A DNA stretch of 64,000 nucleotides from an uncultured Alphaproteobacteria bacterium (GTDB lineage Bacteria; Pseudomonadota; Alphaproteobacteria; RF32; CAG-239). Below are positions 10,902-40,010 of this stretch, one piece after another (position 1 is the first letter of the stretch; every line of letters begins with the position of its first letter). The translations under genes were made by a program, and so were the position numbers. The stretch is taken from positions 5,041 to 69,040 of the forward strand of contig CALXTU010000004.1 of assembly GCA_944391495.1 (NCBI GenBank), in the 5' to 3' direction. The notes beneath the pieces were generated by a model, which saw only the letters and a program-made list of their open reading frames with translations, was not told the origin of the DNA and searched no databases.

Positions 10902-12207
10902 AGATTTGGCCGATAAAAACATCATCATCTGGGGGCTCGGCACTGAGGGCCGTGCCGTTAAAGACTACCTCGAAAAACATCGGCTCGGCCGCAATATATG
11001 GATTTATAATGATGCCGACGGCGTTGAGCGTCTGAACGAACTGGCCTCCCGGGCCGATGTTCTGGTGCGTTCTCCCGGGGTGAGTATTTATAAGCCGGAG
11101 TTTCTGCGCTTAAAGGAGCAGGGGCTTGCCATAACCTCCAGCACCAACCTGTTTTTGGCCGAGATGAAAGCCAACCGTCCGCACACCAGAGTTATCGGTG
11201 TCACCGGTTCCAAGGGTAAATCAACCAGTGTCAGCATGATGTATCATATGATGCAAGGGCTGGGGTTGAAAGTAGCCCTCGGCGGCAACATCGGTAAAGC
11301 GCTGATAGAACTGGTCGACGAGGATAACGATTACGTTATCGGCGAATTTTCGAGTTATCAGGCGTCGGATTTGGAAAATTCGCCCGATGTGGTAATGTTT
11401 ACCAACCTGTTTTCAGTGCATACCGACTGGCACGGCGGGCATGAGGGCTATTGCCGCGACAAAGTGCATCTGGCCGCCAAGGCCGGTATGGCGGTGGTTA
11501 ACGCCGAAAACGCCGAGCTGATGCACTACACGTCGGATTTGCCGCACCGTATGTTTTACCAAAAAGAGGAGGGCTTTCACGCCGTCGGCAAAGAGCTCTA
11601 TTATCAGAACGAGCCGGTCTGCAATATAGATTCGCTGCGGATAAGCGGCAATCACAACATGGCCAATCTGGCCGGCGTTATGACGGTTTTGGACTATCTG
11701 GGACTGGACTGGCGGCGGGCGTTGAGCTTTTTGCCGTCGTTTGAGCCGCTGCCGCACCGCCTGCAAAAAATCGGCCGCGTTGGCAATATCCTGTTCATCA
11801 ACGACAGCATTTCCACCGCGCCGGAAGCGGCTATCGGCGGTATGCAGAGTTTTGACGACACTATGGCGATAATATCCGGCGGAATTGAAAACAAACAGGA
11901 CTATACCGACTACGCCAAATTTATCGAGGCCAACCCCAAGGTTAAGGTGGCGGTAACGCTGTTCCAATGCGGTCATCAGATTGCCGAAAGTATCAGAAAA
12001 TATGTCCGCCGGCCGGATTTTAAATTGATTGAGGCCGAGAGCTTGCAAGAAGCTGTCAACGCCGCCTATAAAGAATTGCAAAAAGTCGGCGGCACGCTGG
12101 TTTTGTTCTCGCCGACAGCGCCGAGTTTCGGCTATTACAAAAACTTTATGGAGCGCGGCGAAGACTTTATTAATTGTGTTAAAAAGCTTGCCGCCGGTGT
12201 CAAATAA
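10891..12207 (+). CDS. murD: Mur ligase family protein, MurD-like
   Basis: GLGTEG, the GVTGSKGKST P-loop, EFSSYQ and NDSISTAP motifs are present. The AGGAG ribosome-binding site and start overlap the 3' end of the channel gene by 11 nt. Confidence 0.65.
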   Translation: MLIKDLADKNIIIWGLGTEGRAVKDYLEKHRLGRNIWIYNDADGVERLNELASRADVLVRSPGVSIYKPEFLRLKEQGLAITSSTNLFLAEMKANRPHTRVIGVTGSKGKSTSVSMMYHMMQGLGLKVALGGNIGKALIELVDEDNDYVIGEFSSYQASDLENSPDVVMFTNLFSVHTDWHGGHEGYCRDKVHLAAKAGMAVVNAENAELMHYTSDLPHRMFYQKEEGFHAVGKELYYQNEPVCNIDSLRISGNHNMANLAGVMTVLDYLGLDWRRALSFLPSFEPLPHRLQKIGRVGNILFINDSISTAPEAAIGGMQSFDDTMAIISGGIENKQDYTDYAKFIEANPKVKVAVTLFQCGHQIAESIRKYVRRPDFKLIEAESLQEAVNAAYKELQKVGGTLVLFSPTAPSFGYYKNFMERGEDFINCVKKLAAGVK

Positions 12208-12209
12208 AA

Positions 12210-12233
12210 AAACACCCGTACGGGTGTTTTTTT
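12210..12233 (+). terminator. Rho-independent terminator
   Basis: acacccg-ta-cgggtgt hairpin followed by a T-tract. Confidence 0.7.
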
Positions 12234-12257
12234 ATAAAAATGGTGCGAGATACTATG

Positions 12258-12290
12258 CAATTATCGGACTAATTTTTATAATGATTTTAA
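12258..12290. repeat. Direct repeat flanking fic (left)
   Basis: gcaattatcggactaatttttat recurs, 23 nt perfect, at 13026-13059. Confidence 0.7.
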
Positions 12291-12392
12291 ACAGCTTTAC
12301 CATAAAATTGAACTTATTAATTGTTAGATTTCTAATAATCATCATTAAAACTTAATTGCTTTTTAGTTTTTTATGTTTAAAATTAAATAAAC

Positions 12393-13019
12393 GTGAAAAA
12401 GAGGGAAATAATGGTTTTAGAAAATAAGTTAAATATCACCAATCAATTAGAGTTGAATAAAATAGAAGAAAAGCTTAGTAAAGAAAAAGCTAAAAAACTT
12501 TTTGACAGTGGTAAAATAAATACTCTTAGAGTCGGTACTTTTGCCGGATTGAAGCAGATTCACAAATTTTTATTTGAAGATATTTATGATTTTGCCGGAA
12601 AAATACGGACTGTTAATCTTTCTAAAGGAAATTTTAGATTTGCGCCGGTTATGTACTTAGAGCAAGCCTTAAAACATATAGATAAAATGCCCCAATCAAC
12701 CTTTGATGAAATTGTTGAAAAATATGTTGAAATGAATATAGCTCATCCTTTTAGAGAAGGAAATGGTCGCGCTACCCGAATTTGGCTGGATTTAATCTTC
12801 AAAAAAGAACTAAAAATGGTGGTTGATTGGAATAAAATTGATAAATCCGACTATCTGTCCGCTATGGAAAGAAGCCCAATTAAAGATATTGAAATAAAAC
12901 ATCTCTTAAAAAATGCCCTTACTGATAGAATTAATGAAAGAGAAGTATTCATGAAAGGAATTGATGTTAGTTATTATTACGAAGGCTATGATGAATACGA
13001 CATCCATAAGCTGATGTAA
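12393..13019 (+). CDS. fic: Fic/Doc family protein (AMPylator-type)
   Basis: Canonical HPFREGNGR Fic motif. Size and layout resemble E. coli Fic. An alternative start exists at 12411. Confidence 0.85.
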
Positions 13020-13025
13020 GATTAA

Positions 13026-13059
13026 GCAATTATCGGACTAATTTTTATGATAATTTTAA
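13026..13059. repeat. Direct repeat flanking fic (right)
   Basis: See left copy. Confidence 0.7.
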
Positions 13060-13412
13060 GCTTTTGAGTAAGAAAATTGAAAATTGTATGCGATGATTGG
13101 CTTACCTTGAGGATATATATTTCTTTTTATCTCTTTTGAATTTTTATAAATTATTTCTTGTAACAAAGTTCCATCAGGCCTGTAACCTCGACTAATGCCA
13201 TCCATTTTGCCGTTTTTATACTGAGCCTCCAAAAGAACTTTTCCATTCGGATAATAGACATACACAATACCATTTATAGGTTCTTTATTAACATTATAGC
13301 GTATTCCATCTATTAGTTTTGTATTTTCCATAGTATACCTATCTTGAGCTAAACAATTACAGCTCAAGATAGATATAAAAAAAATGATTTTCAAAATATT
13401 ATTCATCTTCAA
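13056..13412 (-). CDS. YwqK-family (MORN-variant repeat) secreted protein, immunity-like
   Basis: Signal peptide followed by repeated YxNGK...G..Y units (YYPNGKVLLEAQYKNGKMDG...). Confidence 0.55.
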   Translation of the reverse strand: MKMNNILKIIFFISILSCNCLAQDRYTMENTKLIDGIRYNVNKEPINGIVYVYYPNGKVLLEAQYKNGKMDGISRGYRPDGTLLQEIIYKNSKEIKRNIYPQGKPIIAYNFQFSYSKA

Positions 13413-14337
13413 CTAAATGTTTACATTTTTTCCATTCTTTATGAATATTATCATAAAAATACCAGTTTTCTTTAACATTTTCTGCATATCCTAAAATGTC
13501 AGTACTGGCAGCATTGATACTAGGATAGCTTTTGCCGTTTTTGGGGCAAATGATTTTATCTCCTTCTTTTTTTAATTCGTAGATATTTCCTTTTTGATTA
13601 CCCCTTTTCATACTTCTTTTAATAATGGTCCCTTCGGGAATTTTTTTAGTATCAATTTGACCTTTATATGTTCTGAATATCGGAGAAACAAACTCGGAAA
13701 TAACATCTTTATTATCAGTTTTAAGCTCAGGAGTATTTTCAAATTTTTTAGCATCAAAATTGAAATCTATAGGTGTTTGTAACAAATTCTCATATTTTTC
13801 GGAGAATGTGACACCATCTTGAATATAGTGTATTAAATCAATTAAATTATTAAGATCTGTTCTATATGGAAGTATTAAAGAGTCTTCATATCCATTTGAT
13901 TCTCGAGTTTCTAATTCTGTAGATATAAAATCCCTACATACATTTAATATATTATAAACTTTTTGAATCTCTTTGATTGTTCTTGCAAGTTTTGGATTTG
14001 TTGTTGTTGCTAATAATTCATATTCTCCATTTTCTAAAGCAGAATAAATTTCATAAGTATCTTGTTTTTTTACAATAATATTAGATTGAGGAATGTTATT
14101 ATATGTTTGTATTAAATCAAGCATCAATTGGCAAGCTAATGCTTGTTTTCCTAATTTTGATATATCGGTTCTTCCTGATAGCCAATTATTTGCGGTAGAT
14201 TCGGAAACATCTAATAAATTAGAAATTTCTTCAGCATCACTATGTTTGTTTAAGTCAAAATTATCAACATCAATAGCTTTATTTTTTGCTATTTCTTTTA
14301 AAAATTTTTCAGCTTCATAATATGTAAAGTTTTTCAT
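13399..14337 (-). CDS. HTH (XRE-like) domain protein with unknown C-terminal domain
   Basis: A helix-turn-helix at about residues 30-65. The 3' end overlaps the ywqK-like gene. Confidence 0.45.
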   Translation of the reverse strand: MKNFTYYEAEKFLKEIAKNKAIDVDNFDLNKHSDAEEISNLLDVSESTANNWLSGRTDISKLGKQALACQLMLDLIQTYNNIPQSNIIVKKQDTYEIYSALENGEYELLATTTNPKLARTIKEIQKVYNILNVCRDFISTELETRESNGYEDSLILPYRTDLNNLIDLIHYIQDGVTFSEKYENLLQTPIDFNFDAKKFENTPELKTDNKDVISEFVSPIFRTYKGQIDTKKIPEGTIIKRSMKRGNQKGNIYELKKEGDKIICPKNGKSYPSINAASTDILGYAENVKENWYFYDNIHKEWKKCKHLVEDE

Positions 14338-14649
14338 GTTTTTCTCCTAAAAAATATTAAATATGCAAAACATATGCATTATTTTTTATAAAATGTCAAT
14401 AGCAATTTTATTACTTTTTAATAAATGCTACAATTCATTAATGAAAAAATAAAACTATTAGCGCTGTTTTATTTATTTTTTCATTATACTTATAAAAAAT
14501 ATCACATTTTATATGATTGGAATTTGAAATGGTAAATTATAAAAGCTTTATTTTCTTAGTTTTCGCTTAAAAAGTCCGATAAGTTTATAAAAATCGTCAA
14601 ATTAAAAACATCTAAAATCGGACTGATTGAAATCCTTGGAATACATACA

Positions 14650-14676
14650 AAAAAAGCACCTCAAAGGGTGCATTAT
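14650..14676 (-). terminator. Terminator downstream of tRNA-Thr
   Basis: gcaccctttgaggtgc hairpin followed by a T-tract on the minus strand. Confidence 0.5.
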
Positions 14677-14682
14677 CAAAAA

Positions 14683-14758
14683 TGGTGCCGCAGAGTGGAC
14701 TCGAACCACCGACCTATTGATTACGAATCAATTGCTCTACCAGCTGAGCTACTACGGC
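14683..14758 (-). tRNA. tRNA-Thr (anticodon CGU)
   Basis: A cloverleaf can be drawn by hand: a 7-bp acceptor stem, anticodon loop TTCGTAA, a GGTTCGAGTCC T-arm and an encoded CCA. Confidence 0.9.
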
Positions 14759-14903
14759 ATCAGGCAAATTCGGAAACCCTTTTATTATACTTTTTTTCTT
14801 TTTGCAAGTCTTTTTATGCGGTTTGTGATTTTTGCAGTAATTTAATTCTCTTGAAAAATTGTTTTTACGAACTTTCGCCGATAGGTTACGGAACTTTGTT
14901 GTA

Positions 14904-14934
14904 GAAAAGACCCCCTGAGTTTTTGCTCAGGGTT
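14904..14934 (-). terminator. Terminator after dut
   Basis: ccctgagcaaaaactcaggg hairpin followed by a T-rich tail on the minus strand. Confidence 0.5.
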
Positions 14935-14940
14935 TCTTTT

Positions 14941-15390
14941 TCATCTGATGCCGCTGGAGCCGAAACCTTTGCCGCCGCGCTCGGTTTCGCTCAAAATTTC
15001 CGCCGCGCAAACCTCCGGCTTAAAAACCGGACACACCACAATCTGCGCGATTCTGTCCAGCGGTTTTATTTCAAAATCAAAATCGTTAAAGTTCATGATA
15101 TTGACCTTTATTTCGCCGCGATAAGCGGCGTCAACCGTACCGAACTGGGCGATAACGCCGTTTTTGGTCAGTCCGGAACGCGGCCGGATCTGAATTTCGG
15201 CCGACCAGCCGTCCGCGGCCGGATACCCCGTCAGCTCCAGACATATTCCGGCCGGAATGGTGGCGATTCCCTTGGCCGGAATAATCCACGATTCGTCAAT
15301 TGCGGCACGAATGTCATAACCGCTGTCGCCGTCTTTGGATGCAAGCGGCGGCAGGCTTGAGTTTAAGTATTTCACTTTTAGTTGCATCAA
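14941..15390 (-). CDS. dut: dUTP diphosphatase
   Basis: dUTPase motifs are present (AGxDLR-like, GLT/VxG, RSGxG, the C-terminal motif V). Confidence 0.9.
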   Translation of the reverse strand: MMQLKVKYLNSSLPPLASKDGDSGYDIRAAIDESWIIPAKGIATIPAGICLELTGYPAADGWSAEIQIRPRSGLTKNGVIAQFGTVDAAYRGEIKVNIMNFNDFDFEIKPLDRIAQIVVCPVFKPEVCAAEILSETERGGKGFGSSGIR

Positions 15391-15558
15391 TTCGTCTCCT
15401 GATTGAAATTAACTTTATATTAACCGGATATTACTAATCTGACAATGCCAAACATAAACATACCAAAATATACTTTATTAGTATTTTGAAATATTTTGTG
15501 ACTTGGCAACGACTAAAAATTGCAATAGTCTGTTTTGCGTAGTCAGAAAAAGGCTACG

Positions 15559-15574
15559 TTGTTAAATTTAACAA
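15559..15574. promoter_or_regulatory. Perfect 16-bp palindrome TTGTTAAATTTAACAA just upstream of the OMP gene's ribosome-binding site
   Basis: Perfect inverted repeat 16 nt upstream of ATG 15590. Confidence 0.4.
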
Positions 15575-15589
15575 ACAAGGAGACTTTTT

Positions 15590-16387
15590 ATGAAATTTAG
15601 AACTATGTTGCTTGCTTCTGCAGCAGTTATGTTTACTTCTTCCGCTTTTGCGGCGGATATTACCAATCCGTTCTTCCTGCCGACACAGGGCAAATTCCTG
15701 TCCGACACATCTGTAGAGTTCTCTCGTGTTAAATGGGAAGGCGAAGACGGCGGTGCTTCTAAAGATTTGTATGCCAATGAGAGATTGTCTTTTGGTTTGA
15801 CCGATAATTTGGCTGTATTTGCTAGCATTGGTAATACTTTTGATTATGATAAGAGTGAAACTTTGAACAACGACCACAACTTCGATTATGAGTTGGGTGT
15901 TGCTTATAACCACAACTTTGGCAAAGTTTTGACTCAGGTTGGTGCTTCTTATTGGACATATGATCCGCAGAGCTGGTATGGACAGAATTACAGCGATGAT
16001 GAGATGGGCGACCGTTGGGAAAAAGAAATCAACGCTCACGTAATGTTGGGTTATGCGATGGATTGCGGTTTCACGCCGTACACCTCTTTCTCGGTTAATG
16101 CCGATATTGACAGAGACAACAACGAGCAGAGATATGCTTGGTTTGTCGGCGCTCACAAAGCCTGGAGCAAAGCTTCGGTTGACGGCGGTTTCCGTTATGA
16201 ATTCGGTGACGAAGAGGAAGATAGAGGCGACGGCCACAACGAGGATCTGTACCTCCAGTTGGCGGCTAACTACTTCGTAACCGACAACTTCACCGTTGGT
16301 GTATATGGCGACTACAATTTGATGCCTGAAGACAAAGATACAAAATATGACTACACCATTGGTTTGAATGCCAAAGTATTGTTCTAA
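15590..16387 (+). CDS. Outer-membrane beta-barrel protein (porin/surface antigen-like)
   Basis: Signal peptide, alternating amphipathic strands rich in Y/G/D/N, and a C-terminal Phe. Confidence 0.65.
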   Translation: MKFRTMLLASAAVMFTSSAFAADITNPFFLPTQGKFLSDTSVEFSRVKWEGEDGGASKDLYANERLSFGLTDNLAVFASIGNTFDYDKSETLNNDHNFDYELGVAYNHNFGKVLTQVGASYWTYDPQSWYGQNYSDDEMGDRWEKEINAHVMLGYAMDCGFTPYTSFSVNADIDRDNNEQRYAWFVGAHKAWSKASVDGGFRYEFGDEEEDRGDGHNEDLYLQLAANYFVTDNFTVGVYGDYNLMPEDKDTKYDYTIGLNAKVLF

Positions 16388-26590: not shown

Positions 26591-28160
26591 ATCGGGATTT
26601 TTCTTTCTTCTGAAACATTTTAGCAAAACCTTTCTTGGCTTTAGATGTCTTTTCGGAGGAAACATTAGAAGCTTTTTCTTGTTTGTTTTCCTTCTGCACA
26701 ACTTGTTGTGCCGAGGGATCGGCAACTTCTACCCAAGTTTTAGTATCTTTATTTGTTGTAGTATCTTTATTTATAGATTCTTCTATCTCCTGAATTTTTT
26801 TATCTTTAATCGTCTGACGACGTTTTTTCAAATCCTGCTGTGCCTGTTCCAAGGTTATATTTTGATAATCATTTCTGATTTTCTGCACTTTCTTGTCACT
26901 CATATCCAAATCCAAATTCGACAAGTCAAGTCCGTTGACAAAAGTCTGGAAGGTTTGAAAATCTTTTTTCGTTACGGATGTTTTGCCGTCAATGGAATTC
27001 CATAACTCATTTAAATAAGTCTGATAGTTTTGTTGAGCCTTGGTATATGAATATCCCTGAACCTTGTTCTTGGTATTAGGTATTCCGCCCAAAACATGTT
27101 TGTCGCCATCGCCGGCCCATGACGAGTAGGACGTATGAACCTTTTGACCGTCCGACGATAAAACGGCCGAACCGTCAGCATTGTAAAGAACACCGATTTC
27201 TACGGGGCTCTTAGCCAAAATATCAGGAGATACAACCGGTTCATCACCGGCAGTTTTGTGCAAAACAGAAGTTTTATATTTTCCGTCTTCACTGGCATAT
27301 TGCCAAATACAATAACTGGTGCTGTCAATAGAAACATTTTGCCAGTCGTTGCCGGAGCGTTCAAAAATTTCATAAGTGGTTTCGGGAATGATTTCTTCCA
27401 CCGATTTTGCCAAAACAATGGAGCCCCAGTTTGTATTATAGTTGCGTGTATAACCGTCCAAATGTTTTCCCTTAAAATATTCTGTAGTTTCTTTGGCCGA
27501 TTTTTTATCTCCTTCCTTAAAACAAATTAATTCGGCGAGTATTTCGGCACGTGCTCGGTCCGAAACTTTCATAAATAACGTGCCGTCATACAATTTATCG
27601 CGAACATCAGCCATAAGCGCATGTGTCTTTTCATGGTCGGCAACGGATGCGGAATAATTGTTTTTATTAATGTTATCTATCAGCTGCTGTTCTGCATCGG
27701 TCGGGTTATTTATCCGATATTGGTTATAAACAATGCCGACTCCGTCAATATATTTTCCGGCCGGACGGTGAGAATTATATATGGCATCCAGAGAAGGAAA
27801 TTCTTCTATATGAAGATAATGTTTTATTTGTTTAGATGTCGAAGTCGTATCTTCTTTTATTTGGGATTCGGAATGATCATCTGCCGACGATTCCAGGCCA
27901 TCTACATAATAGGTTGAGTCATCTTTCTCTGCTTGAGAAGATGGCGTATTGACGACAAAAGTTGTTTTTCCTTTTAATTCATTATCTTGAGGTGTCTGGT
28001 CCGTGATGTTTGCTCCCGAGGCAAAAGGTGCCAATCCCAAAAAGAAACCCGCCACAGATGATGCAAACTTATTTATGGAAACATTAGAATTTTGCATTTC
28101 GTCATTTTTTTGCTTCTTTGCTTTAATATTTTTAATACGTTCTAGATAATCAGCATCCAT
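26589..28160 (-). CDS. AT-rich gene for a 523-aa predicted secreted protein with an HExxH motif and a Lys-rich coiled-coil tail
   Basis: A hydrophobic signal-like segment near the N-terminus, an HEKTH motif mid-protein and a K/Q/E-rich C-terminus. Composition is visibly AT-richer than the neighbours. Confidence 0.55.
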   Translation of the reverse strand: MDADYLERIKNIKAKKQKNDEMQNSNVSINKFASSVAGFFLGLAPFASGANITDQTPQDNELKGKTTFVVNTPSSQAEKDDSTYYVDGLESSADDHSESQIKEDTTSTSKQIKHYLHIEEFPSLDAIYNSHRPAGKYIDGVGIVYNQYRINNPTDAEQQLIDNINKNNYSASVADHEKTHALMADVRDKLYDGTLFMKVSDRARAEILAELICFKEGDKKSAKETTEYFKGKHLDGYTRNYNTNWGSIVLAKSVEEIIPETTYEIFERSGNDWQNVSIDSTSYCIWQYASEDGKYKTSVLHKTAGDEPVVSPDILAKSPVEIGVLYNADGSAVLSSDGQKVHTSYSSWAGDGDKHVLGGIPNTKNKVQGYSYTKAQQNYQTYLNELWNSIDGKTSVTKKDFQTFQTFVNGLDLSNLDLDMSDKKVQKIRNDYQNITLEQAQQDLKKRRQTIKDKKIQEIEESINKDTTTNKDTKTWVEVADPSAQQVVQKENKQEKASNVSSEKTSKAKKGFAKMFQKKEKSR

Positions 28161-29574: not shown

Positions 29575-29650
29575 GGGCGCTTAGCTCAGCTGGAAGAGCA
29601 TCTCGTTTACACCGAGAGGGTCGGGAGTTCGAACCTCTCAGCGCCCACCA
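29575..29650 (+). tRNA. tRNA-Val (anticodon UAC)
   Basis: A cloverleaf can be drawn by hand: GGGCGCT acceptor stem, anticodon loop TTTACAC, T-arm GGGAGTTCGAACCTCTC and an encoded CCA. Confidence 0.9.
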
Positions 29651-29662
29651 ATTGCTAAGCAA

Positions 29663-29690
29663 AAACGACCGTTGCTCCGGTCGTTTTTGT
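29663..29690 (+). terminator. Terminator after tRNA-Val
   Basis: aacgaccg...cggtcgtt hairpin followed by a T-tract. Confidence 0.6.
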
Positions 29691-29765
29691 CTGTAAAATC
29701 TTTGGAACATCTTATTGAGCGAGGAAGCGTAAGCCTGCCGCAGCGAAATTAGATGCCTAAGCTAA

Positions 29766-29791
29766 AGCCACCCGGAAGGGTGGTTTTTTTA
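29766..29791 (+). terminator. Second hairpin/T-tract terminator
   Basis: ccaccc-ggaa-gggtgg followed by T7. Confidence 0.6.
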
Positions 29792-29835
29792 TTGGTATGG
29801 GTGGTTAAGGTTTGAACTCCCGAGAGGGCGCAAAG

Positions 29836-29866
29836 TGCAAAAAAGATCCAGTGAATCTTTTTTGCC
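29836..29866. repeat. Perfect 11-bp-stem hairpin
   Basis: GCAAAAAAGAT-ccagtga-ATCTTTTTTGC, immediately 5' of the tandem repeats. Confidence 0.6.
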
Positions 29867-30141
29867 TTTGCGGTGCAGAGTTGTTAACGAGCGATGAGCG
29901 TAAGCGAGAGGAGCGAGTGTTACAACTCAAACTGGCTGCCGCAGCAAGGGAAAGGCCTTTGCGGTGCAGAGTTGTTAACGAGCGATGAGCGTAAGCGAGA
30001 GGAGCGAGTGTTACAACTCAAACTGGCTGCCGCAGCAAGGGAAAGGCCTTTGCGGTGCAGAGTTGTTAACGAGCGATGAGCGTAAGCGGTTACAACTCAA
30101 ACTGGCTGCCGCAGCAAGGGAAAGACCTTTGCGGTGCTTGG
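29865..30141. repeat. Tandem direct repeat, 91-bp unit, about 3.2 copies
   Basis: Unit starts at 29865, 29956 and 30047 (third copy 79 bp, internal 12-bp deletion), plus a truncated start at 30126. Each unit holds an imperfect inverted repeat (gagttgttaac / gttacaactc). Confidence 0.85.
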
Positions 30142-30201
30142 CCGTCTGCCTGTCGGCCTAAATATTTCTTGCGGCTTTTGTATCTGCCATTATATCAAGC
30201 G

Positions 30202-31158
30202 CTAGTTGCAGCGCAGTTTGATCGTAAACCCGAACAGGGTAATATATCTGTGTTTGCGGTCGGTTGACGTCTCAATCCAAAACAGACGTTTCCACAACGG
30301 CAGTCTGGCGCGTCCTTTGCCGGCTTCTTTGACGCCGATTTCCTTTTGCAGGGCATCAAACGCCGGAACCAGTTTGGCATATTCTTTAAACTCGTCGGTA
30401 AAGGTGTTGCGGCACGCCGGATGATTCGGTTTTTTGCCGGTGAAGTGAACAATAACCGGATTAGCTTCGGCTTTGGCAAATTCGGCGGCATATTTTTCGT
30501 CATATTCCGGTTCGTTTTTGCGCCACCAAACCTGCATATAATCATATTTGGGCGACAGACGGCATTTCAGACCGTCGCAGGTTTTGTTCAGGGCGTCTTG
30601 GTCGTTGCTGATTTTGCAGTCGGTCATGACAATGTTTTTCAGTTTGCCGAAGAAGTCCGCCTTGCGCCAGGCCTTAAGATTAATTAACACGACACCGGAA
30701 TTAAAATAAAAATTATCTTCAAGCGCGATATCTTTTGCTTTTTGCTTTGAGGCGGAAACATCTTCAATGACGCCGACCAGATTATCGCCGAGATCCGTTT
30801 TGAACAATTCATGCAGCGAACCGCGCACAATCGTATCGCAGTCAAGATAGAGAACCATATCTTCTGCCGGCAGCAAATCCGCCAGCAGACAACGGAACCA
30901 GGCCTCAACGGTAACCCAGTTCGGGCAGGGAAAGCCGTCAAAAATCTTTTCGTCGATTTTAATTTTTTTCAGCTCATAATTTTTGATGGACTGCAGATTG
31001 TCAAACGTCTGCAGATACTTGTCTTCCAGCTGCGAATACATGATAATAAACTCGATTTCGTCGCCTTTACGGGCGTTTTTGAGCACCGATGCCATAGACA
31101 CCAATGTCAGCGGCACAAAGTTGGTATCGGGAGCATAAGCAATCGTAATTTTGGTCAT
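30202..31158 (-). CDS. GT8-family glycosyltransferase (RfaJ/LgtC-like)
   Basis: GT8 DxD context (LYLDCDTIV) and NSGVVLINL. Confidence 0.75.
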   Translation of the reverse strand: MTKITIAYAPDTNFVPLTLVSMASVLKNARKGDEIEFIIMYSQLEDKYLQTFDNLQSIKNYELKKIKIDEKIFDGFPCPNWVTVEAWFRCLLADLLPAEDMVLYLDCDTIVRGSLHELFKTDLGDNLVGVIEDVSASKQKAKDIALEDNFYFNSGVVLINLKAWRKADFFGKLKNIVMTDCKISNDQDALNKTCDGLKCRLSPKYDYMQVWWRKNEPEYDEKYAAEFAKAEANPVIVHFTGKKPNHPACRNTFTDEFKEYAKLVPAFDALQKEIGVKEAGKGRARLPLWKRLFWIETSTDRKHRYITLFGFTIKLRCN

Positions 31159-33914: not shown

Positions 33915-34307
33915 ATGTCGGAATCCAAACTTTCTCCTCACATTAAAAATTGTTTATCCAAAGGTTTTAATATCGTCAAAATCATCGGCAATATCTGTGC
34001 TTTTGTGCTGTTATGTTTTTTGAGTGTTCTTTTGGTGTACACAATTTTAGAGGGAATCATCAATTATGATGAGGATTTTGATATCGGCAAAGCAACAATC
34101 GTATCAAAATGGGTTATATTGCCGCTGTACGGTCTCCTTGCACTGATAACTTGCGGCATGCTGGTTAAGACGGCATCGCGACTGTTAAAGCCCTGGAAAC
34201 TGGTTTGGCATATTCTTTATTGGTTGTTGCCTTTTGCTGTTTTGTTACTGATGATATGGTTTATGGGCATATCCCTTAAGCTGTCGACGGCGTTGTCTCT
34301 TTCATAA
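33915..34307 (+). CDS. Small predicted membrane protein
   Basis: 130 aa with 4 TM helices. Confidence 0.35.
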   Translation: MSESKLSPHIKNCLSKGFNIVKIIGNICAFVLLCFLSVLLVYTILEGIINYDEDFDIGKATIVSKWVILPLYGLLALITCGMLVKTASRLLKPWKLVWHILYWLLPFAVLLLMIWFMGISLKLSTALSLS

Positions 34308-34364
34308 AACAACCTCTTCAAAATAGTTTATCTTGCTTTCAAAAGCTTGTTTTGACAGGCCGTC

Positions 34365-36446
34365 TTAAGCCTTATAAGTTCTGACACCGTCGTCTTGCTC
34401 AAACAGATATAAAAGAATTCTCAGCGCCTGTCCGCGCGGGCTCTGCAGATTGGGATCTTTATTAAGGATAAGCTTGGCGTCCTGATTGGCAATAAACAAA
34501 AGATTTTTATGATATTCCATATCCGCCAGCCTGAACTGACAAAAGCCGCTTTGTCTGGTGCCCAGGATTTCACCGCCGCCGCGCAGTTCCAAATCTTTTT
34601 CGGCAATCAAAAAACCGTCTTCGGTCTGTTTCATGATGTTAAGACGCTCATGAGCGGTTTCGCTCAGGGGCTGCCCGTAAAGCAGCAGACAAGTCGCCGC
34701 CTCAAACCCGCGTTTGACTCGTCCGCGCAGCTGGTGCAGCTGCGCCAGTCCGAAACGCTCGGCATGTTCAATCACCATAATGGTGGCTTCCGGCACATTT
34801 ACGCCGACTTCAATCACCGTCGTCGCCACCAGCAGTTTAATCTCACCTCGTTTAAACCGCTCCATAACCGCGTCTTTGTCTTTTTCTTTCATCTTGCCGT
34901 GCACCAGTCCGACATCATTGCCGAATATCTTGCGCAGGTCTTCAAACCGTGCTTCGGCTGCTGCCAGGTCGCTTTTTTCGGATTCTTCCACCAGCGGACA
35001 AACCCAGTAGGCTCTGGTGCCGCTTTCGATTTTGCGCTTTAAGGCCGCCACCGTTTCCGTCAGTTTGCTGAGCGGCAAAACTCGGGTGTCCACCGGCTTG
35101 CGCCCTTCGGGAACCTGGTCGATTTTGGAGTATTCCATATCGCCGTAAGATGTCAAAACCAGCGTCCGCGGAATAGGGGTGGCCGTCATCACCAAAACAT
35201 CGGCCTTATTGCCTTTTTCCGACAATTTAAGCCGCTGGTGCACGCCAAACCGGTGTTGCTCGTCCACGACCACAAAGCCGAGTTCGTGGTAACTGACGTC
35301 TTCTTGAAACAACGCGTGCGTACCGATAAGAATATTAATGCTTCCCTCCGCCAGCCGCGACAATATTTCGGCCCGGGCTTTGCCTTTGGTCTTGCCGGTC
35401 AGAAGCGCCGCCGTAATGCCGATATCCTCGCACATCGGTGCAATCGTTTCAAAATGCTGTTTGGCCAAAATCTCGGTCGGCGCCATAATGGCGGCCTGCA
35501 GTCCGCTTTCAACCGCATTCAGCATTGCCAAAAATGCCACAATCGTTTTGCCGGAGCCGACATCGCCCTGCAACAGCCGCAGCATGCGGAGCGGCTCGGC
35601 CTGGTCGGCATAAATTTCGGCCAACACGTTTTTTTGCGCGCTTGTCAGGGCAAAGGGCAGTTTTTCCAAAATCTTTTTGCGTAAAAGCCCGTTGCCGCGG
35701 ATAATCCGCCCGTTTTGTTTTTTGACGCGTTCGCGGGCAATGGCCAACGTCAGCTGATTAGCCAGAAGTTCGTCATAAGCCAGTCGTGCCCGCTCTTTGG
35801 CATAAGGCTCAAGATCCTGCTGATAATGCGGATGATGAGCTTTGAGCAGCGCCGTGCGGAAATCGTCCCAGCCGTGTTGTTTGACAAAGGCCGCGTCAAG
35901 CCATTCGGGCAGGGCGGGTACCCGTGCCAATGCCTGTTCGGCATATTTGTTAAGCATTTTGTTGCTGATGCCGGCCGTCAGCGGATAAACCGGTTCAAAT
36001 GCCGGAATTTTGTCGCTTTCGGCTTCCGGCACGATGTAGTCCGGGTGTGCCATCTGCAGCATGCCGTTAAAACTTTCAAGTTTGCCGCTGACAATCCGCA
36101 CCGCGCCGACGGGCAGATTCTTGGCAATCGAATCAGCATAAACCTTAAAGAAAACCAGAGTCAGATCTTCGCTGCCGTCGCTGACGACCACCCGGTAGGG
36201 CTGCTGCCGTGTTTTCGGCGCAATATGTTCAACAACCTTAACCCGCACGGTGCAAATCCGGCCCGGCACGGCGTCTTTAAGCCGCGGCCGGTAAGAGCGA
36301 TCGACAATTCCCGCCGGCAGATGAAACGCCAGATCAACAATTTTACTGCCGCCCAAAAGATTTTGCAGCAGTTTAACGGTCTTGCTGCCGATACCTTTCA
36401 GCACCGAAATATCGGCAAACAGGGGAAACAGAATCTCCGGACGCAT
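34365..36446 (-). CDS. recG: ATP-dependent DNA helicase RecG
   Basis: Wedge domain, helicase motifs I-VI (GDVGSGKT, DEQHRFG). Started at the internal MRPEILFPLF. Confidence 0.9.
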   Translation of the reverse strand: MRPEILFPLFADISVLKGIGSKTVKLLQNLLGGSKIVDLAFHLPAGIVDRSYRPRLKDAVPGRICTVRVKVVEHIAPKTRQQPYRVVVSDGSEDLTLVFFKVYADSIAKNLPVGAVRIVSGKLESFNGMLQMAHPDYIVPEAESDKIPAFEPVYPLTAGISNKMLNKYAEQALARVPALPEWLDAAFVKQHGWDDFRTALLKAHHPHYQQDLEPYAKERARLAYDELLANQLTLAIARERVKKQNGRIIRGNGLLRKKILEKLPFALTSAQKNVLAEIYADQAEPLRMLRLLQGDVGSGKTIVAFLAMLNAVESGLQAAIMAPTEILAKQHFETIAPMCEDIGITAALLTGKTKGKARAEILSRLAEGSINILIGTHALFQEDVSYHELGFVVVDEQHRFGVHQRLKLSEKGNKADVLVMTATPIPRTLVLTSYGDMEYSKIDQVPEGRKPVDTRVLPLSKLTETVAALKRKIESGTRAYWVCPLVEESEKSDLAAAEARFEDLRKIFGNDVGLVHGKMKEKDKDAVMERFKRGEIKLLVATTVIEVGVNVPEATIMVIEHAERFGLAQLHQLRGRVKRGFEAATCLLLYGQPLSETAHERLNIMKQTEDGFLIAEKDLELRGGGEILGTRQSGFCQFRLADMEYHKNLLFIANQDAKLILNKDPNLQSPRGQALRILLYLFEQDDGVRTYKA

Positions 36447-36536
36447 AAAACCGTGGCCTTTCGTGAAATAAAACTTGCATAACCAAAGGCTATTGTATAT
36501 ATTTTTTCGCGTTAAGTAAACAACAAGAAACAAATA

Positions 36537-39500
36537 ATGCAGTACAATATCGCGCATTTTAAGGGAGCCGTTTTTTCTTCCGTCGCCAGGGGCTATGACG
36601 CTCTTCTGGCGGGCAATTTTGCGCTCAACTCGCCGGAAGGCGTGGTCTACATTGCCGCCGACGGTGTTGAGCTGGCCAATATGGCCGCTCTTTTGGAATA
36701 TATGTATCCGTCGTTGCAGGTGTTGCGGTTTCCGGCCTGGGATACCGTGCCGTATGACCGTGTTTCGCCCAATCCGTCAATCATTGCGCAGCGGATTGAC
36801 TGCCTGTCGGCTCTGGCGCAAAATCCGTCGCCCGAGCACCCGCGCATTGTGGTAACCTCGGTCGGTGCGGTGCTGCAAAAACTGCCGCCGAAGAAAATTT
36901 TTCTTAATTCAATACGTGAAGTTTCTGTCGGCAGTAAATTGAATTTTGATGATTTTTTGCATTACGCAGCAGTCAACGGCTATAACCGCGTCGCTCAGGT
37001 TTATGAGGCCGGGGAATATGCCGTCCGCGGTGATATCATAGATATTTTTCCGGTCGGCACCGACGAGCCGCTGCGCATAGATTTGTTTGATGACGAGGTT
37101 GAGCGTATCCGCAAATTTGACGTCATGAGCCAGCGAACCACCGGCGAGCTGCGGTCATACCGATTCAAGGTCATGAGCGAGGTCATTCTGGACGCCAACA
37201 CCATAAAGACTTTCCGCTCCAAATACCGCGAAGCCTTCGGCGCCGACTTCAGCGGCGATGAAATTTATGAGGCCGTTTCCGCCGGCCGCAAATATATCGG
37301 TCTGGAAAACTGGCTGCCGTTTTTTTATGAAGATCCGCTGCCGACTTTGTTTGATTATCTGCCGTCCGCCGGAATTCTGGTTTCGGACAAAGTTGCCGAT
37401 GCGGCCGCCGCCAAAGCCGACAGCATTGCCGATTATTATCATGCCCGCCTTGAGGCGCTCAAGATAAAATCGGCCGCCGGCGAAGAGGCCTATCGCCCGG
37501 TAAAACCGGAACTTCTCTATTTGACGGACAAAGAATTTGAAAATATATTAAAGCAAAAACAAAGTATTACAATAACATTTTTAAGCATTCCATCATCGGA
37601 AAATGTTATTGATTGCCGGATTCTGCCGTCCCGCGATTTTGCCTCGGCCAAGAACATTACCGCCGGCGAGGTTTATGTTGAGCTCAAAAATTATCTGAAC
37701 GAGAACAAAAAGCTGAAACGCATCATTGCCTGCTATTCCGAGGGCAGCCGCGAACGTTTGTTTTCGCTGATGAATGAATACGAAATCCCGGACCTGACCT
37801 TTGCCGCAGGCTGGGACGAAGCCCTGGATAAAGCCAAAGACAAAGTGGTTATGGTTATTATGCCGCTGGAACACGGCTTTAAGGGCGATGGCTTGTGTCT
37901 GGTTGCCGAGCAGGACATTCTGGGCGAAAAGCAAAACCGCCGCAAGCAAAAGAAATATTCCTCCAAGGATTTTATCGCCGATGTCGGCTCATTGCAGGTC
38001 GGCGAATTGGTGGTGCATATTGACCACGGCATCGGCCGTTTTATGGGGCTTGAAAACATCACGGCCGGCGGTGCGCCGCATGATTGTCTGAAGATTGTTT
38101 ATGCCAATGATGCCAAGCTGTTTGTACCGGTTGAAAACATTGATGTCTTGTCGCGCTACGGTCTTGACGACGAAAATATTGAGCTTGATACGCTGGGCGG
38201 CGCGGCCTGGTCGGCCAAAAAGGCCAAAGTCAAGGCCAAAATCCGCGATATTGCCGAAAAACTGATTAAAATTGCCGCCGAGCGCCATCTCAAAAAGGCT
38301 GACTGTTATGCGCCGCCGCAGGGAATGTTTGATGATTTCTGCGCCCGTTTTCCTTACAACGAAACCGACGACCAGCTTAATGCCATTGCCGACGTCATGG
38401 CGGATTTGAACGCCGCAATCCCGATGGACCGTCTGGTATGCGGTGATGTCGGTTTCGGCAAGACCGAGGTCGCTCTGCGCGCCGCGTTTGCTGTGGCTGC
38501 TTCCGGCGCTCAGGTGGCGGTTGTGGTGCCGACCACCTTGCTGGCGCGCCAGCATTATCAAAATTTCAAAGCCCGGCTAGAAGGTTTTCCGATAAGGGTT
38601 AAAATGCTCTCGCGTCTGGTAACGCCCAAAGAAGCGCGCGAAACCAAACAGGGGCTGAAAGAAGGTTCGGTTGAAATTGTCATCGGCACCCACGCGCTGT
38701 TGTCGGAGAAAATTGAGTTTTGCAACCTCGGTCTGCTGATAATTGATGAGGAACAGCATTTCGGCGTGGCCCACAAAGAAAAGCTGAAACAAATCAAATC
38801 AGACGTTCACGTCCTGACTTTGACCGCCACGCCGATACCGCGCACGCTGCAGTTATCGCTGACAGGGGTCAAGAGCCTGAGCGTCATTGCCACACCGCCG
38901 GTTGACCGCCTGGCCGCGCGTTCTTTTGTCATGCCGTTTGATAAGGTGATGATTAAAGAGGCCGTCTACCGCGAAAAATACCGCGGCGGCCAAACGTTTT
39001 TTGTCTGTCCGCGGGTTTCGGATATCCGCGAGGTTGAAAAAGAACTGCGCGCATTGCTGCCGGATATCAAAATTCTGGTGGCCCACGGCCAAATGCCGGC
39101 CAAACAGCTTGAAGAGGTTATGAACGATTTTGCCGACGGTCAGGCCGATATGCTGTTGTCGACCACGATTATCGAATCCGGCATTGATATGCCGCGGGTT
39201 AACACGATGATTGTCTACCGTGCCGATATGTTCGGTTTAGCACAGTTGTATCAGCTCAAGGGCAGAATAGGGCGCGGCAAAGTCAGGGGCTATGCCTATT
39301 TCACCATTCCGCCGCGGCGCAAGCTTAATCCGGTGGCCGAGCGGCGTTTAAGCATTTTGCAGGCGCTGGATACGCTGGGCGCCGGCTTTTCACTGGCCAG
39401 TCACGATATGGATATCCGCGGCGCCGGCAATGTTCTGGGTGAGGAGCAGTCCGGCCATATTAAAGATGTCGGTATTTCACTTTACCAGCATATGCTGGAA

Positions 39501-40010
39501 GAAGAAATCCTGCGGCTGCGTTCCGGTGTGATGGCCGACGAGCAGCGCAAACAGATTGAAGACTGGGCCCCGCAGATTTCAACCGGTATCCCGATTATGA
39601 TACCCGAAACCTATGTCCGTGATCTGGGTATTCGTCTGGGGCTTTATAAACGCATCGGCGATATTAAAGATGCCGGAGCTTTGGCCGATATGCGCGAAGA
39701 GCTGATAGACCGTTTCGGCCCGCTGCCGCCGGAGGTTGAAAACCTGTTGACCACGGTTGAGATAAAAATTGCCTGCCGCCGGGCCGGGATTGACCGGATT
39801 GACGCCGGCGCCAAAGGAGTGTTGATCGGGTTTAGGGGCAATATTTTTGCTCATCCCGAAAAACTAATTGATTTGGTGGCCTCGTCATTCGGCGCCATCA
39901 AAGTTCGTCCGGATCAGCGCCTGTTTATTGAAAAAGACCTGTCTTCTTATGACGTCCGCATTAAAACAATCCGGCAGTATATTCACAAAATAGCCGCTTT
40001 GGCGGCATAA
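36537..40010 (+). CDS. mfd: Transcription-repair coupling factor Mfd
   Basis: 1157 aa with a UvrB-homology N-terminus, a RecG-like translocase core (GDVGFGKTE, DEEQHFG) and a TRCF C-terminus. Confidence 0.9.
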   Translation: MQYNIAHFKGAVFSSVARGYDALLAGNFALNSPEGVVYIAADGVELANMAALLEYMYPSLQVLRFPAWDTVPYDRVSPNPSIIAQRIDCLSALAQNPSPEHPRIVVTSVGAVLQKLPPKKIFLNSIREVSVGSKLNFDDFLHYAAVNGYNRVAQVYEAGEYAVRGDIIDIFPVGTDEPLRIDLFDDEVERIRKFDVMSQRTTGELRSYRFKVMSEVILDANTIKTFRSKYREAFGADFSGDEIYEAVSAGRKYIGLENWLPFFYEDPLPTLFDYLPSAGILVSDKVADAAAAKADSIADYYHARLEALKIKSAAGEEAYRPVKPELLYLTDKEFENILKQKQSITITFLSIPSSENVIDCRILPSRDFASAKNITAGEVYVELKNYLNENKKLKRIIACYSEGSRERLFSLMNEYEIPDLTFAAGWDEALDKAKDKVVMVIMPLEHGFKGDGLCLVAEQDILGEKQNRRKQKKYSSKDFIADVGSLQVGELVVHIDHGIGRFMGLENITAGGAPHDCLKIVYANDAKLFVPVENIDVLSRYGLDDENIELDTLGGAAWSAKKAKVKAKIRDIAEKLIKIAAERHLKKADCYAPPQGMFDDFCARFPYNETDDQLNAIADVMADLNAAIPMDRLVCGDVGFGKTEVALRAAFAVAASGAQVAVVVPTTLLARQHYQNFKARLEGFPIRVKMLSRLVTPKEARETKQGLKEGSVEIVIGTHALLSEKIEFCNLGLLIIDEEQHFGVAHKEKLKQIKSDVHVLTLTATPIPRTLQLSLTGVKSLSVIATPPVDRLAARSFVMPFDKVMIKEAVYREKYRGGQTFFVCPRVSDIREVEKELRALLPDIKILVAHGQMPAKQLEEVMNDFADGQADMLLSTTIIESGIDMPRVNTMIVYRADMFGLAQLYQLKGRIGRGKVRGYAYFTIPPRRKLNPVAERRLSILQALDTLGAGFSLASHDMDIRGAGNVLGEEQSGHIKDVGISLYQHMLEEEILRLRSGVMADEQRKQIEDWAPQISTGIPIMIPETYVRDLGIRLGLYKRIGDIKDAGALADMREELIDRFGPLPPEVENLLTTVEIKIACRRAGIDRIDAGAKGVLIGFRGNIFAHPEKLIDLVASSFGAIKVRPDQRLFIEKDLSSYDVRIKTIRQYIHKIAALAA

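Follow-up and report, generated by a model that had tools for sequence, protein, structure and literature searches.

The element analysed here is a tandem array of 91-bp units downstream of a tRNA-Val gene, in a 64-kb window (the whole stretch of DNA that was analysed, 64,000 nucleotides of contig CALXTU010000004.1 from an uncultured alphaproteobacterium), and several described bacterial systems resemble it in part. The mycobacterial interspersed repetitive unit-variable number tandem repeat (MIRU-VNTR) loci of Mycobacterium tuberculosis form a family over about 40 loci and often overlap gene ends within operons. They share with our array the head-to-tail arrangement of intergenic repeats of tens of bases, near-identical units, occasional internal deletions and a strain-variable copy number, but the 91-bp unit was detected at a single locus and consists of two hairpins. 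The BOX elements of Streptococcus pneumoniae, which consist of boxA, repeated boxB and boxC, occur as over 100 dispersed copies; a fixed leader (here a composite hairpin, B0) followed by a variable number of tandem stem-loop modules in an intergenic position is also seen at our locus, whereas no dispersal was found for the 91-bp unit. BrickBuilt, a minisatellite inside a MITE (miniature inverted-repeat transposable element) from Porphyromonas gingivalis, has units of 23 nt, occurs in 19 genomic copies, ends in small inverted repeats and has demonstrated promoter activity (PMC4596501). It is like our array in its species-specific, intergenic and spacerless tandem repeats, its leader and tail segments and its strain-variable copy number, and unlike it in that here the unit is 91 nt long, there is one locus, and neither inverted ends nor a target duplication were found. 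Repetitive extragenic palindromic (REP) sequences are 20-40 bp long, GC-rich and of high copy number, and carry an unpaired GTAG or CGTC tag (PMC3733652). Together with bacterial interspersed mosaic elements (BIMEs) they resemble our units as extragenic palindromes between convergent genes, downstream of coding regions, which may be transcribed as 3'-end hairpins; the window units, in contrast, carry neither tag (they read GCAG), have AT-rich stems and a 30-nt loop, and follow each other in direct and not alternating orientation. Finally, the intergenic mosaic elements of Neisseria and the attL/attR scars of islands at tRNA genes offer a parallel to a patchwork spacer that is reshuffled between strains, in some cases with direct repeats of the tRNA 3' end, although the modules here are unrelated to dRS3/RS repeats, uptake sequences are lacking and the window allele has no integrase.

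We favour the reading that the array is a locus-specific minisatellite, that is a VNTR, and not a dedicated genetic device, and we put the probability of this at roughly 0.6. Both hallmarks of a VNTR are seen: the units abut head to tail without spacers, and their copy number at this locus is polymorphic between strains. Tandem Repeats Finder (TRF) places the array at 29864-30137, with a period of 91, 3.1 copies, a score of 457 and 93% matches, and sub-patterns 29 and 36 nt long each have three occurrences, with 0 expected in shuffles. A first-pass annotation of the same letters had described three contiguous near-identical 91-bp units, the third with a 12-bp internal deletion, and both descriptions hold: units 1 and 2 are identical, and unit 3 (Table 1) lacks AGAGGAGCGAGT from the loop of its hairpin A and carries one G>A change (GGCC to GACC). 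The fourth unit, which had been taken to begin and break off at 30141, does begin, but it consists of a 13-mer alone and ends at 30137; the same 13-mer, GCCTTTGCGGTGC, both opens and closes the array. An inverted repeat had also been noted in each unit, and it is indeed present as the stem of hairpin A (GAGTTGT[T]AAC / GTTACAACTC; 29878-29888 / 29919-29928 in unit 1), which has 10 pairs and one bulged T, is AT-rich and encloses a GAGCG-rich loop of 30 nt with an apical GC-GUAA-GC mini-hairpin. Hairpin B (CTGCCGCAGCAAGGGAAAGGCCTTTGCGGTGCAG) straddles each unit junction, beginning at 29936 in unit 1 and continuing into unit 2. The three-unit structure with its deleted unit is seen again in the independent assemblies L002, L003 and L004, and is therefore not an assembly artefact.

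The decisive evidence comes from a comparison of strains. Alleles were obtained via flanking proteins, either identical or homologous, and a module library was used to map them, in which U is the 91-nt unit, Dg a degenerate copy of it, T1m and T2m are terminator modules, X is an element of ~103 nt, R the right flank, GT8 a family-8 and GT2 a family-2 glycosyltransferase gene. L002, L004, L021, L025 and L032 belong to the species of the window (flank identity 96-100%), and L024 and L033 to a sister lineage that is ~90% identical. The window, L002 and L003 share the order tRNA, T1m, Dg, T2m, B0, U, U, U', R, GT8 and thus carry 3.1 units. L023 has 1.7, as its T1m, Dg, T2m and B0 are followed by one complete U, 0.7 of another and then an unrelated plus-strand gene. 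Two alleles carry no unit at all: L021 (tRNA, T1m, Dg', T2m, R', GT8) and L032, in which tRNA, T1m, Dg, T2m, X and 13 nt of the tRNA 3' end precede a second series of T1m, Dg', T2m, R' and GT8. A solo U, comprising positions 20-91 and hence without the 5' stem arm of hairpin A, is found in L025, L029 and L030 (tRNA, T2m, X, 13 nt of the tRNA 3' end, T1m, solo U, R, GT8). Copy number in the species of the window is thus 0, a solo unit, 1.7 or 3.1. Within the sister lineage L033 has three units (tRNA, T2m, B0, U, U, a diverged U'', an X fragment, GT2, GT8), and L024 has the same order minus one U and thus two units. The copy number of L004 cannot be read, because a 100-N scaffold gap falls inside one unit. 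Over 8.7 kb the window differs from L002 by a single mismatch, which lies inside the array at 29954, and the short-read contigs L003, L007 and L009 end inside the array. Elsewhere in the spacer, the L008 contig ends at the window equivalent of 29716, and metagenome contigs repeatedly break at module boundaries. The assemblies suggest that strains with different module orders coexist within single samples.

As for how such alleles could arise, 13-mer direct repeats one period apart are a classic substrate for slipped-strand mispairing or unequal crossover. We propose that one spacer module downstream of tRNA-Val, of 91 nt and with two hairpins, was amplified head to tail, and that replication slippage or unequal homologous exchange between the copies of GCCTTTGCGGTGC, 91 nt apart, would add or remove whole units; the identity of units 1 and 2 points to recent events. 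The setting would be a recombination-prone mosaic spacer between a conserved left flank and strain-variable glycosyltransferase genes. Reshuffling of its modules would fit homologous exchange among alleles that share short modules, would also fit the tRNA 3'-end repeats around T2m and X, and may receive a contribution from integrase activity at the tRNA. The array copies are dispensable and show no sign of a dedicated function. Their probable incidental effect would be to lengthen the DNA downstream of the glycosyltransferase operon and, if this operon is transcribed through to T2, to lengthen its 3' untranslated region and add stem-loops to it.

Searches for further copies are in line with a single locus. 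Pattern searches and the hairpin A covariance model, run with filters off, found no further unit in the 64-kb window (the three units have E values of 2e-18 or better and the next match 0.4), nhmmer found no further copy in 217 kb of window and related loci, and exact patterns had no match in metagenome and viral collections (two patterns) or in a genome collection (one pattern). As a period of 91 is not divisible by 3, each unit changes the frame; the array's own 61-aa open frame, compared with a protein database, returned two contigs only, both of them this locus, and a six-frame concatenate peptide search added nothing to those two. The first-pass annotation had named hundreds of copies scattered through the genome as the finding that would speak for a generic element, and no copy outside the locus turned up in the sequence searched. 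It had also proposed an Rfam covariance search and a comparison of copy number between strains; the latter varies, as described above, and the former gave no family match. At the gathering threshold of Rfam 15 only two tRNAs pass, and in permissive mode the array yields two far-sub-threshold chance matches (13.5 and 7.1 bits versus gathering thresholds of 97 and 70), and outside it only terminator look-alikes appear.

Several observations weigh against a mere minisatellite. Because of GU pairs the unit folds more stably on the plus strand, by 5-6 kcal/mol, than on the minus strand (-9.3 and -11.2 kcal/mol, z about -1), which hints that the fold is selected. In L024 and L033 the diverged unit retains hairpin A despite a heavily changed loop, its stem having undergone one compensatory change from G-C to C-G and one from A-U to G-U, so that 60/60 pair cells are still paired. 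In three of three variants (GUAA, GCAA and GAGA) the apical mini-hairpin loop is of GNRA type and closed by GC/GC, and B0 plus unit 1 are ~98% identical between the lineages, compared with 91% for the glycosyltransferase gene. With respect to the single locus, the first genome-collection pattern required GCGTAAGC and would overlook GCGCAAGC variants, and low-copy dispersal may occur elsewhere in the organism's full genome, beyond the sequence scanned. We rate the hints of fold selection low; the compensatory stem change and the three GNRA-type loops leave a small chance for a structured plus-strand RNA. The covariation statistic is poor, its observed value being reached by 93 of 500 shuffles and depending on one diverged sequence, and quasi-palindrome correction by template switching can yield compensatory changes in DNA palindromes without selection. 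Moreover, hairpin A is absent from five of the ~ten distinct alleles. Its 5' arm is present only in alleles that carry B0 and looks like an inverted copy of the 3' arm, for which an origin by template switching would fit.

The GC-GNRA-GC mini-hairpin is the best-conserved part of the hairpin A loop, and it also recurs across the spacer modules as GCGTAAGC, GCGCAAGC, GCGAGAGC and GCGAAAGC. Its sites are 29899-29906 and 29728-29735 in the window, the units of L023, L024 and L033, and the X of L025.

Among the alternatives, we first considered that the units are cis elements at the RNA level, either stem-loops under selection in the glycosyltransferase operon's 3' untranslated region (minus strand) or an insulator separating tRNA and operon. 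They would make transcription pause or end, or be a block to 3'-5' exonucleases, in the manner of REP and BIME. The position of the array fits such a role, between the convergent tRNA-Val and GT8 genes and downstream of the GT8 stop codon, with two hairpins in every unit. No intrinsic terminator was detected from that stop codon to the array, and on the minus strand a terminator-like site is first encountered past the array, at T2. The array of L024 and L033 likewise lies at the 3' end of a minus-strand glycosyltransferase gene. However, it is the minus-strand folds that are the weaker, the array of L023 precedes a plus-strand gene, and the same glycosyltransferase gene occurs without an array (L021, L032) or with a solo unit that lacks the hairpin A stem (L025, L029, L030). 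As identical units also point to recent amplification and not to long-term maintenance, we consider a selected cis element unlikely.

Instead of the operon's 3' end, the plus strand itself could be what matters, each unit being a structured RNA module (a long GNRA-capped hairpin plus a second hairpin) that derives from the conserved, tRNA-Val-linked X and serves as a small RNA or as a decoy for a protein or an RNA. The GU pairs, the GNRA-type apical loops and the compensatory pair described above fit this, as does the resemblance of the unit interior to the 3' part of X, which is itself conserved across species with a compensatory hairpin change, and by inspection a GC hairpin followed by a U-rich tail lies 3' of the array on this strand (30140-30170). 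Against it, the promoter scan found no plus-strand promoter between T2 and the array, two terminator-like hairpins lie upstream, and L021 and L025 do not conserve the hairpin after the array (30140-30158). Half of the alleles lack the element or have it truncated, it has no Rfam match, and its compensatory changes could come from template switching. A Csr/Rsm-type sponge in particular was rejected because GGA occurs ~2 times per 91 nt, which by inspection is the chance level, and no promoter was found for it either. Taken together, a plus-strand RNA module appears distinctly unlikely.

Element X deserves a description of its own. It is conserved, with copies at 4677-4792 in L025, about 4784-4898 in L032 and about 5816-5931 in L015, always lies between two terminators, starts with a direct T-arm-like GGAGTTCGA and ends in CAGCGCCCACCA. 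Between species one of its hairpins shows a compensatory change from TCGGC/GCCGA to TCAGC/GCTGA, and X with its flanks folds into a closed structure of four hairpins (-58 kcal/mol, z -2.25, with the minimum free energy structure equal to the centroid). X could be an att remnant or a tRNA-like small RNA.

An extension of this idea, which we hold to be improbable, is that the unit is a functional plus-strand folded module, RNA or single-stranded DNA, descended from X, and that tandem amplification tunes a dosage-dependent activity at the edge of the glycosyltransferase locus. Here X would end in the tRNA-like ...GCGCCCACCA between two terminators, and the activity might be that of a protein or RNA decoy or of a recombination site for the exchange of glycosyltransferase cassettes.

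We regard it as very improbable that the array works as DNA, be it as attC-like folded single-strand sites, as arm-type sites for an integrase at tRNA-Val or as a sopC-like centromere array. The array does adjoin a tRNA integration site, the right flank differs between strains exactly at the array, and the inner end of the hairpin A stem reads AAC...GTT with one extrahelical T. Yet the stem misfits the attC consensus: TGTTAAC / GTTACAA keeps AAC/GTT but fails two of the four degenerate positions of RYYYAAC / GTTRRRY on each side, and an integron attC array was rejected because successive sites, spaced by 91 nt, enclose no open reading frames and hence no cassette genes, and the flanking genes include no recombinase. 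No integrase or partition genes are present among the called genes within ~4 kb on either side of the array, and the island of L005 and L006 enters at the tRNA end and not at the array. A Xer/dif reading was set aside as well, as the dif-like pattern (E. coli type) had no match within 3 mismatches in the window.

Further candidates were tried and dropped. The array is not a clustered regularly interspaced short palindromic repeat (CRISPR) locus, as the first-pass annotation had already stated, because its contiguous units have no spacers; no cas family was found among the flanking genes. Decayed coding sequence was rejected as tblastn of a Cys-rich repeat protein, a family-2 glycosyltransferase and a 398-aa protein, all occupants of the same space in relatives, found nothing in the array, and a tRNA-derived unit as the comparison of unit and tRNA-Val scored 14 versus a shuffle mean of 14.7. 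Neisseria-type repeats found no support in DNA uptake sequences, none of which was detected. A MITE was rejected because a comparison of the window with the array-free L021 (junctions CCCG/AGAGGG and CTGGC/TGCCG in the window versus CCCGGATGCCG in L021) revealed no terminal inverted repeats and no target-site duplication, and no further copies were found in the window or the 217 kb of loci. REP elements were rejected by sequence, since the window unit contains none of GTAG, CTAC, CGTC and GACG and has a 10-bp AT-rich stem and a 30-nt loop. The least probable reading of all makes the array a single cluster within a dispersed family of REP, BOX or MITE type. Its units are extragenic, palindromic, modular and prone to break assemblies, and the diverged L024/L033 unit alone has GTAG just 5' of the stem (GCAG in the window units). 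Against this, no second copy was found in the 64-kb window, the 217 kb of loci or the public collections, the comparison with L021 shows neither the ends nor the duplication of a mobile element, and the AT-rich stems and 30-nt loop differ from REPs, which are GC-rich and 20-40 bp long (PMC3733652).

The spacer in which the minisatellite lies is itself a mosaic (Table 1). T1m, which is preceded by ...CAGCGCCCACCAAT in every allele, has a perfect 12-bp stem ending in a T run (29660-29671 / 29678-29689); this hairpin (29660-29689) was not flagged by the terminator scan and is read as a terminator by inspection. The first-pass annotation had placed a degenerate copy of the unit between two terminators upstream of the array. 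By itself Dg has little statistical support (p about 0.005 in local alignment; 7.2 bits and E 9.6 with the covariance model; not detected by nhmmer), but L025 and L029 carry a nearly full solo unit and L030 a hybrid at the same position, and these intermediate alleles identify Dg as a true homologue of the unit. T2 is kept in the related species L011, L013 and L015, where it lies directly 3' of the tRNA. An inverted match to the tRNA-Val T-arm, formerly put at ~29816-29835, is real with slightly different coordinates: its core of 16 nt, 94% complementary, lies at 29808-29823 and extends to 29791-29823, with an alignment score of 30 versus a shuffle maximum of 27 (0/3000 shuffles as good). The inverted copy is also found in L015, L011 and L021, and is old, given its conservation among species with flank identities of only 70-80%; it may be functional, either as att core or as structural element. 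Together, tRNA and inverted copy form an imperfect palindrome of ~100 bp centred on T2. The perfect 11-bp-stem hairpin that had been seen before the array is confirmed, nested within the outer stem of B0, whose 3' arm is the first copy of the array-bounding 13-mer. B0 is identical in L023, L024 and L033, and RNAfold gives -22.8 kcal/mol (z -4.8) for its plus strand and -25.0 kcal/mol (z -7.6) for its minus strand.

Table 1. Positions of the array, the spacer modules and the adjoining genes in the 64-kb window
Feature	Position	Strand	Description and evidence
tRNA-Val (anticodon TAC)	29575-29650	+	ARAGORN; Rfam tRNA 64.9 bits; anchors the variable spacer
Module T1m	29651-29714	+	Terminator-like hairpin, then conserved tail; inverted repeat I5, module map
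Module Dg, degenerate partial unit copy	29715-29763	+	Holds GAGCGAGGAAGCGTAAGC and CTGCCGCAGC
Terminator-like hairpin T2	29764-29787	both	CCACCC GGAA GGGTGG, then T7; terminator scan
Inverted copy of tRNA-Val 3' half	29791-29823	-	~33 nt, T-arm to ACCAAT; inverted repeat I3
Module B0, composite hairpin	29829-29872	+	Outer stem CGCAAAG/CTTTGCG; inner perfect 11-bp stem 29837-29847 / 29855-29865
Repeat unit 1	29864-29954	+	91 nt; TRF, repeat families D1-D3, folds, covariance model 95.6 bits
Repeat unit 2	29955-30045	+	100% identical to unit 1; TRF, repeat analysis, covariance model
Repeat unit 3	30046-30124	+	79 nt; covariance model 72.9 bits
Partial fourth unit	30125-30137	+	Terminal 13-mer, GACCTTTGCGGTGC-type; second of the boundary direct repeats that set the 91-nt period
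Right flank R	30138-30201	+	Reaches the glycosyltransferase stop codon; holds hairpin GGCCG-N9-CGGCC at 30140-30158
Family-8 glycosyltransferase gene (GT8)	30202-31158	-	Pfam Glyco_transf_8, E 2.7e-41

The first-pass annotation had also offered an integration scar as one possible explanation. This is supported for the context and not for the array itself, which is better described as a local tandem amplification. The other roles that it had named, a regulatory or structural RNA array and a protein-binding array, remain unsupported. tRNA-Val is an integration site: in L005 and L006 an island is inserted directly after its 3' end (...CCACCAATT). In L025 and L032 the spacer modules are bracketed by a 13-nt direct repeat of the tRNA 3' end (CAGCGCCCACCA), whereas the window has only the inverted copy of the tRNA 3' half and its array is unbracketed by tRNA-end repeats. 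The island occupies at least 3644-7499 of L005 and 3553-7408 of L006 (window equivalent 29653) and carries genes for DUF2958, HTH_3, metallo-beta-lactamase-fold and WYL-domain proteins.

The left flank of the locus is conserved (Lon, a 523-aa protein, HU, a 198-aa protein and tRNA-Val), while strain-variable glycosyltransferase genes, followed by RecG and Mfd, lie to the right of the array. The GT8 gene has a weak NCBIfam match to lipopolysaccharide (LPS) 3-alpha-galactosyltransferase, and we take the glycosyltransferase set to act on LPS or lipooligosaccharide (LOS). In related species and strains the space between tRNA-Val and GT8 holds a Cys-rich repeat protein, family-2 glycosyltransferases or a 398-aa protein. 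A genome-collection search with the adjacent 198-aa protein found no relative. The 523-aa protein (26589-28160, minus strand), which has no known domain, shows 78% identity to its counterpart in L021, compared with 96-98% for the flanks; its length varies from 483 to 523 aa and an 18-bp tandem repeat lies at 26737-26772. The syntenic slot in a related species (L011 6074-8224, L012 6074-8134; also L026, L028, L031 and L034) is taken by a secreted, Cys-rich protein composed of repeats of 31 aa (coding repeats of 93 bp), of 491, 686, 716 or 749 aa depending on the strain. Downstream of the family-8 glycosyltransferase gene in L011 (8344-8500) and L012 (8253-8332) there is a different repeat of ~22 bp (GTCATCCTGAGCG...), which includes GAGCGAAGCGA and in this resembles the GAGCG-rich loop of the 91-bp unit.

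Elsewhere in the window, 12001-16000 is low in GC (30-37% versus about 47%), adjoins tRNA-Thr (14683-14758), includes a Fic/DOC-family protein at 12393-13019 and is probably another tRNA-linked island. The cumulative GC skew peaks at ~34000-40000, with a division and cell-wall gene cluster to the right on the minus strand, a pattern that is expected near a replication terminus.

Strain-variable intergenic minisatellites are a known kind of element, and the array adds a new instance of it in a mosaic, tRNA-linked spacer. For the uncultured gut-type alphaproteobacterium that carries it, the array is usable as a VNTR marker of strains, and short-read assemblies break or collapse at it. If selection on the hairpins were true, the unit would be a small, previously undescribed cis element or RNA, although the present evidence does not require one. 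The locus shows how, among closely related strains, a tRNA-linked spacer that borders variable surface-glycan genes is reshuffled and amplified.

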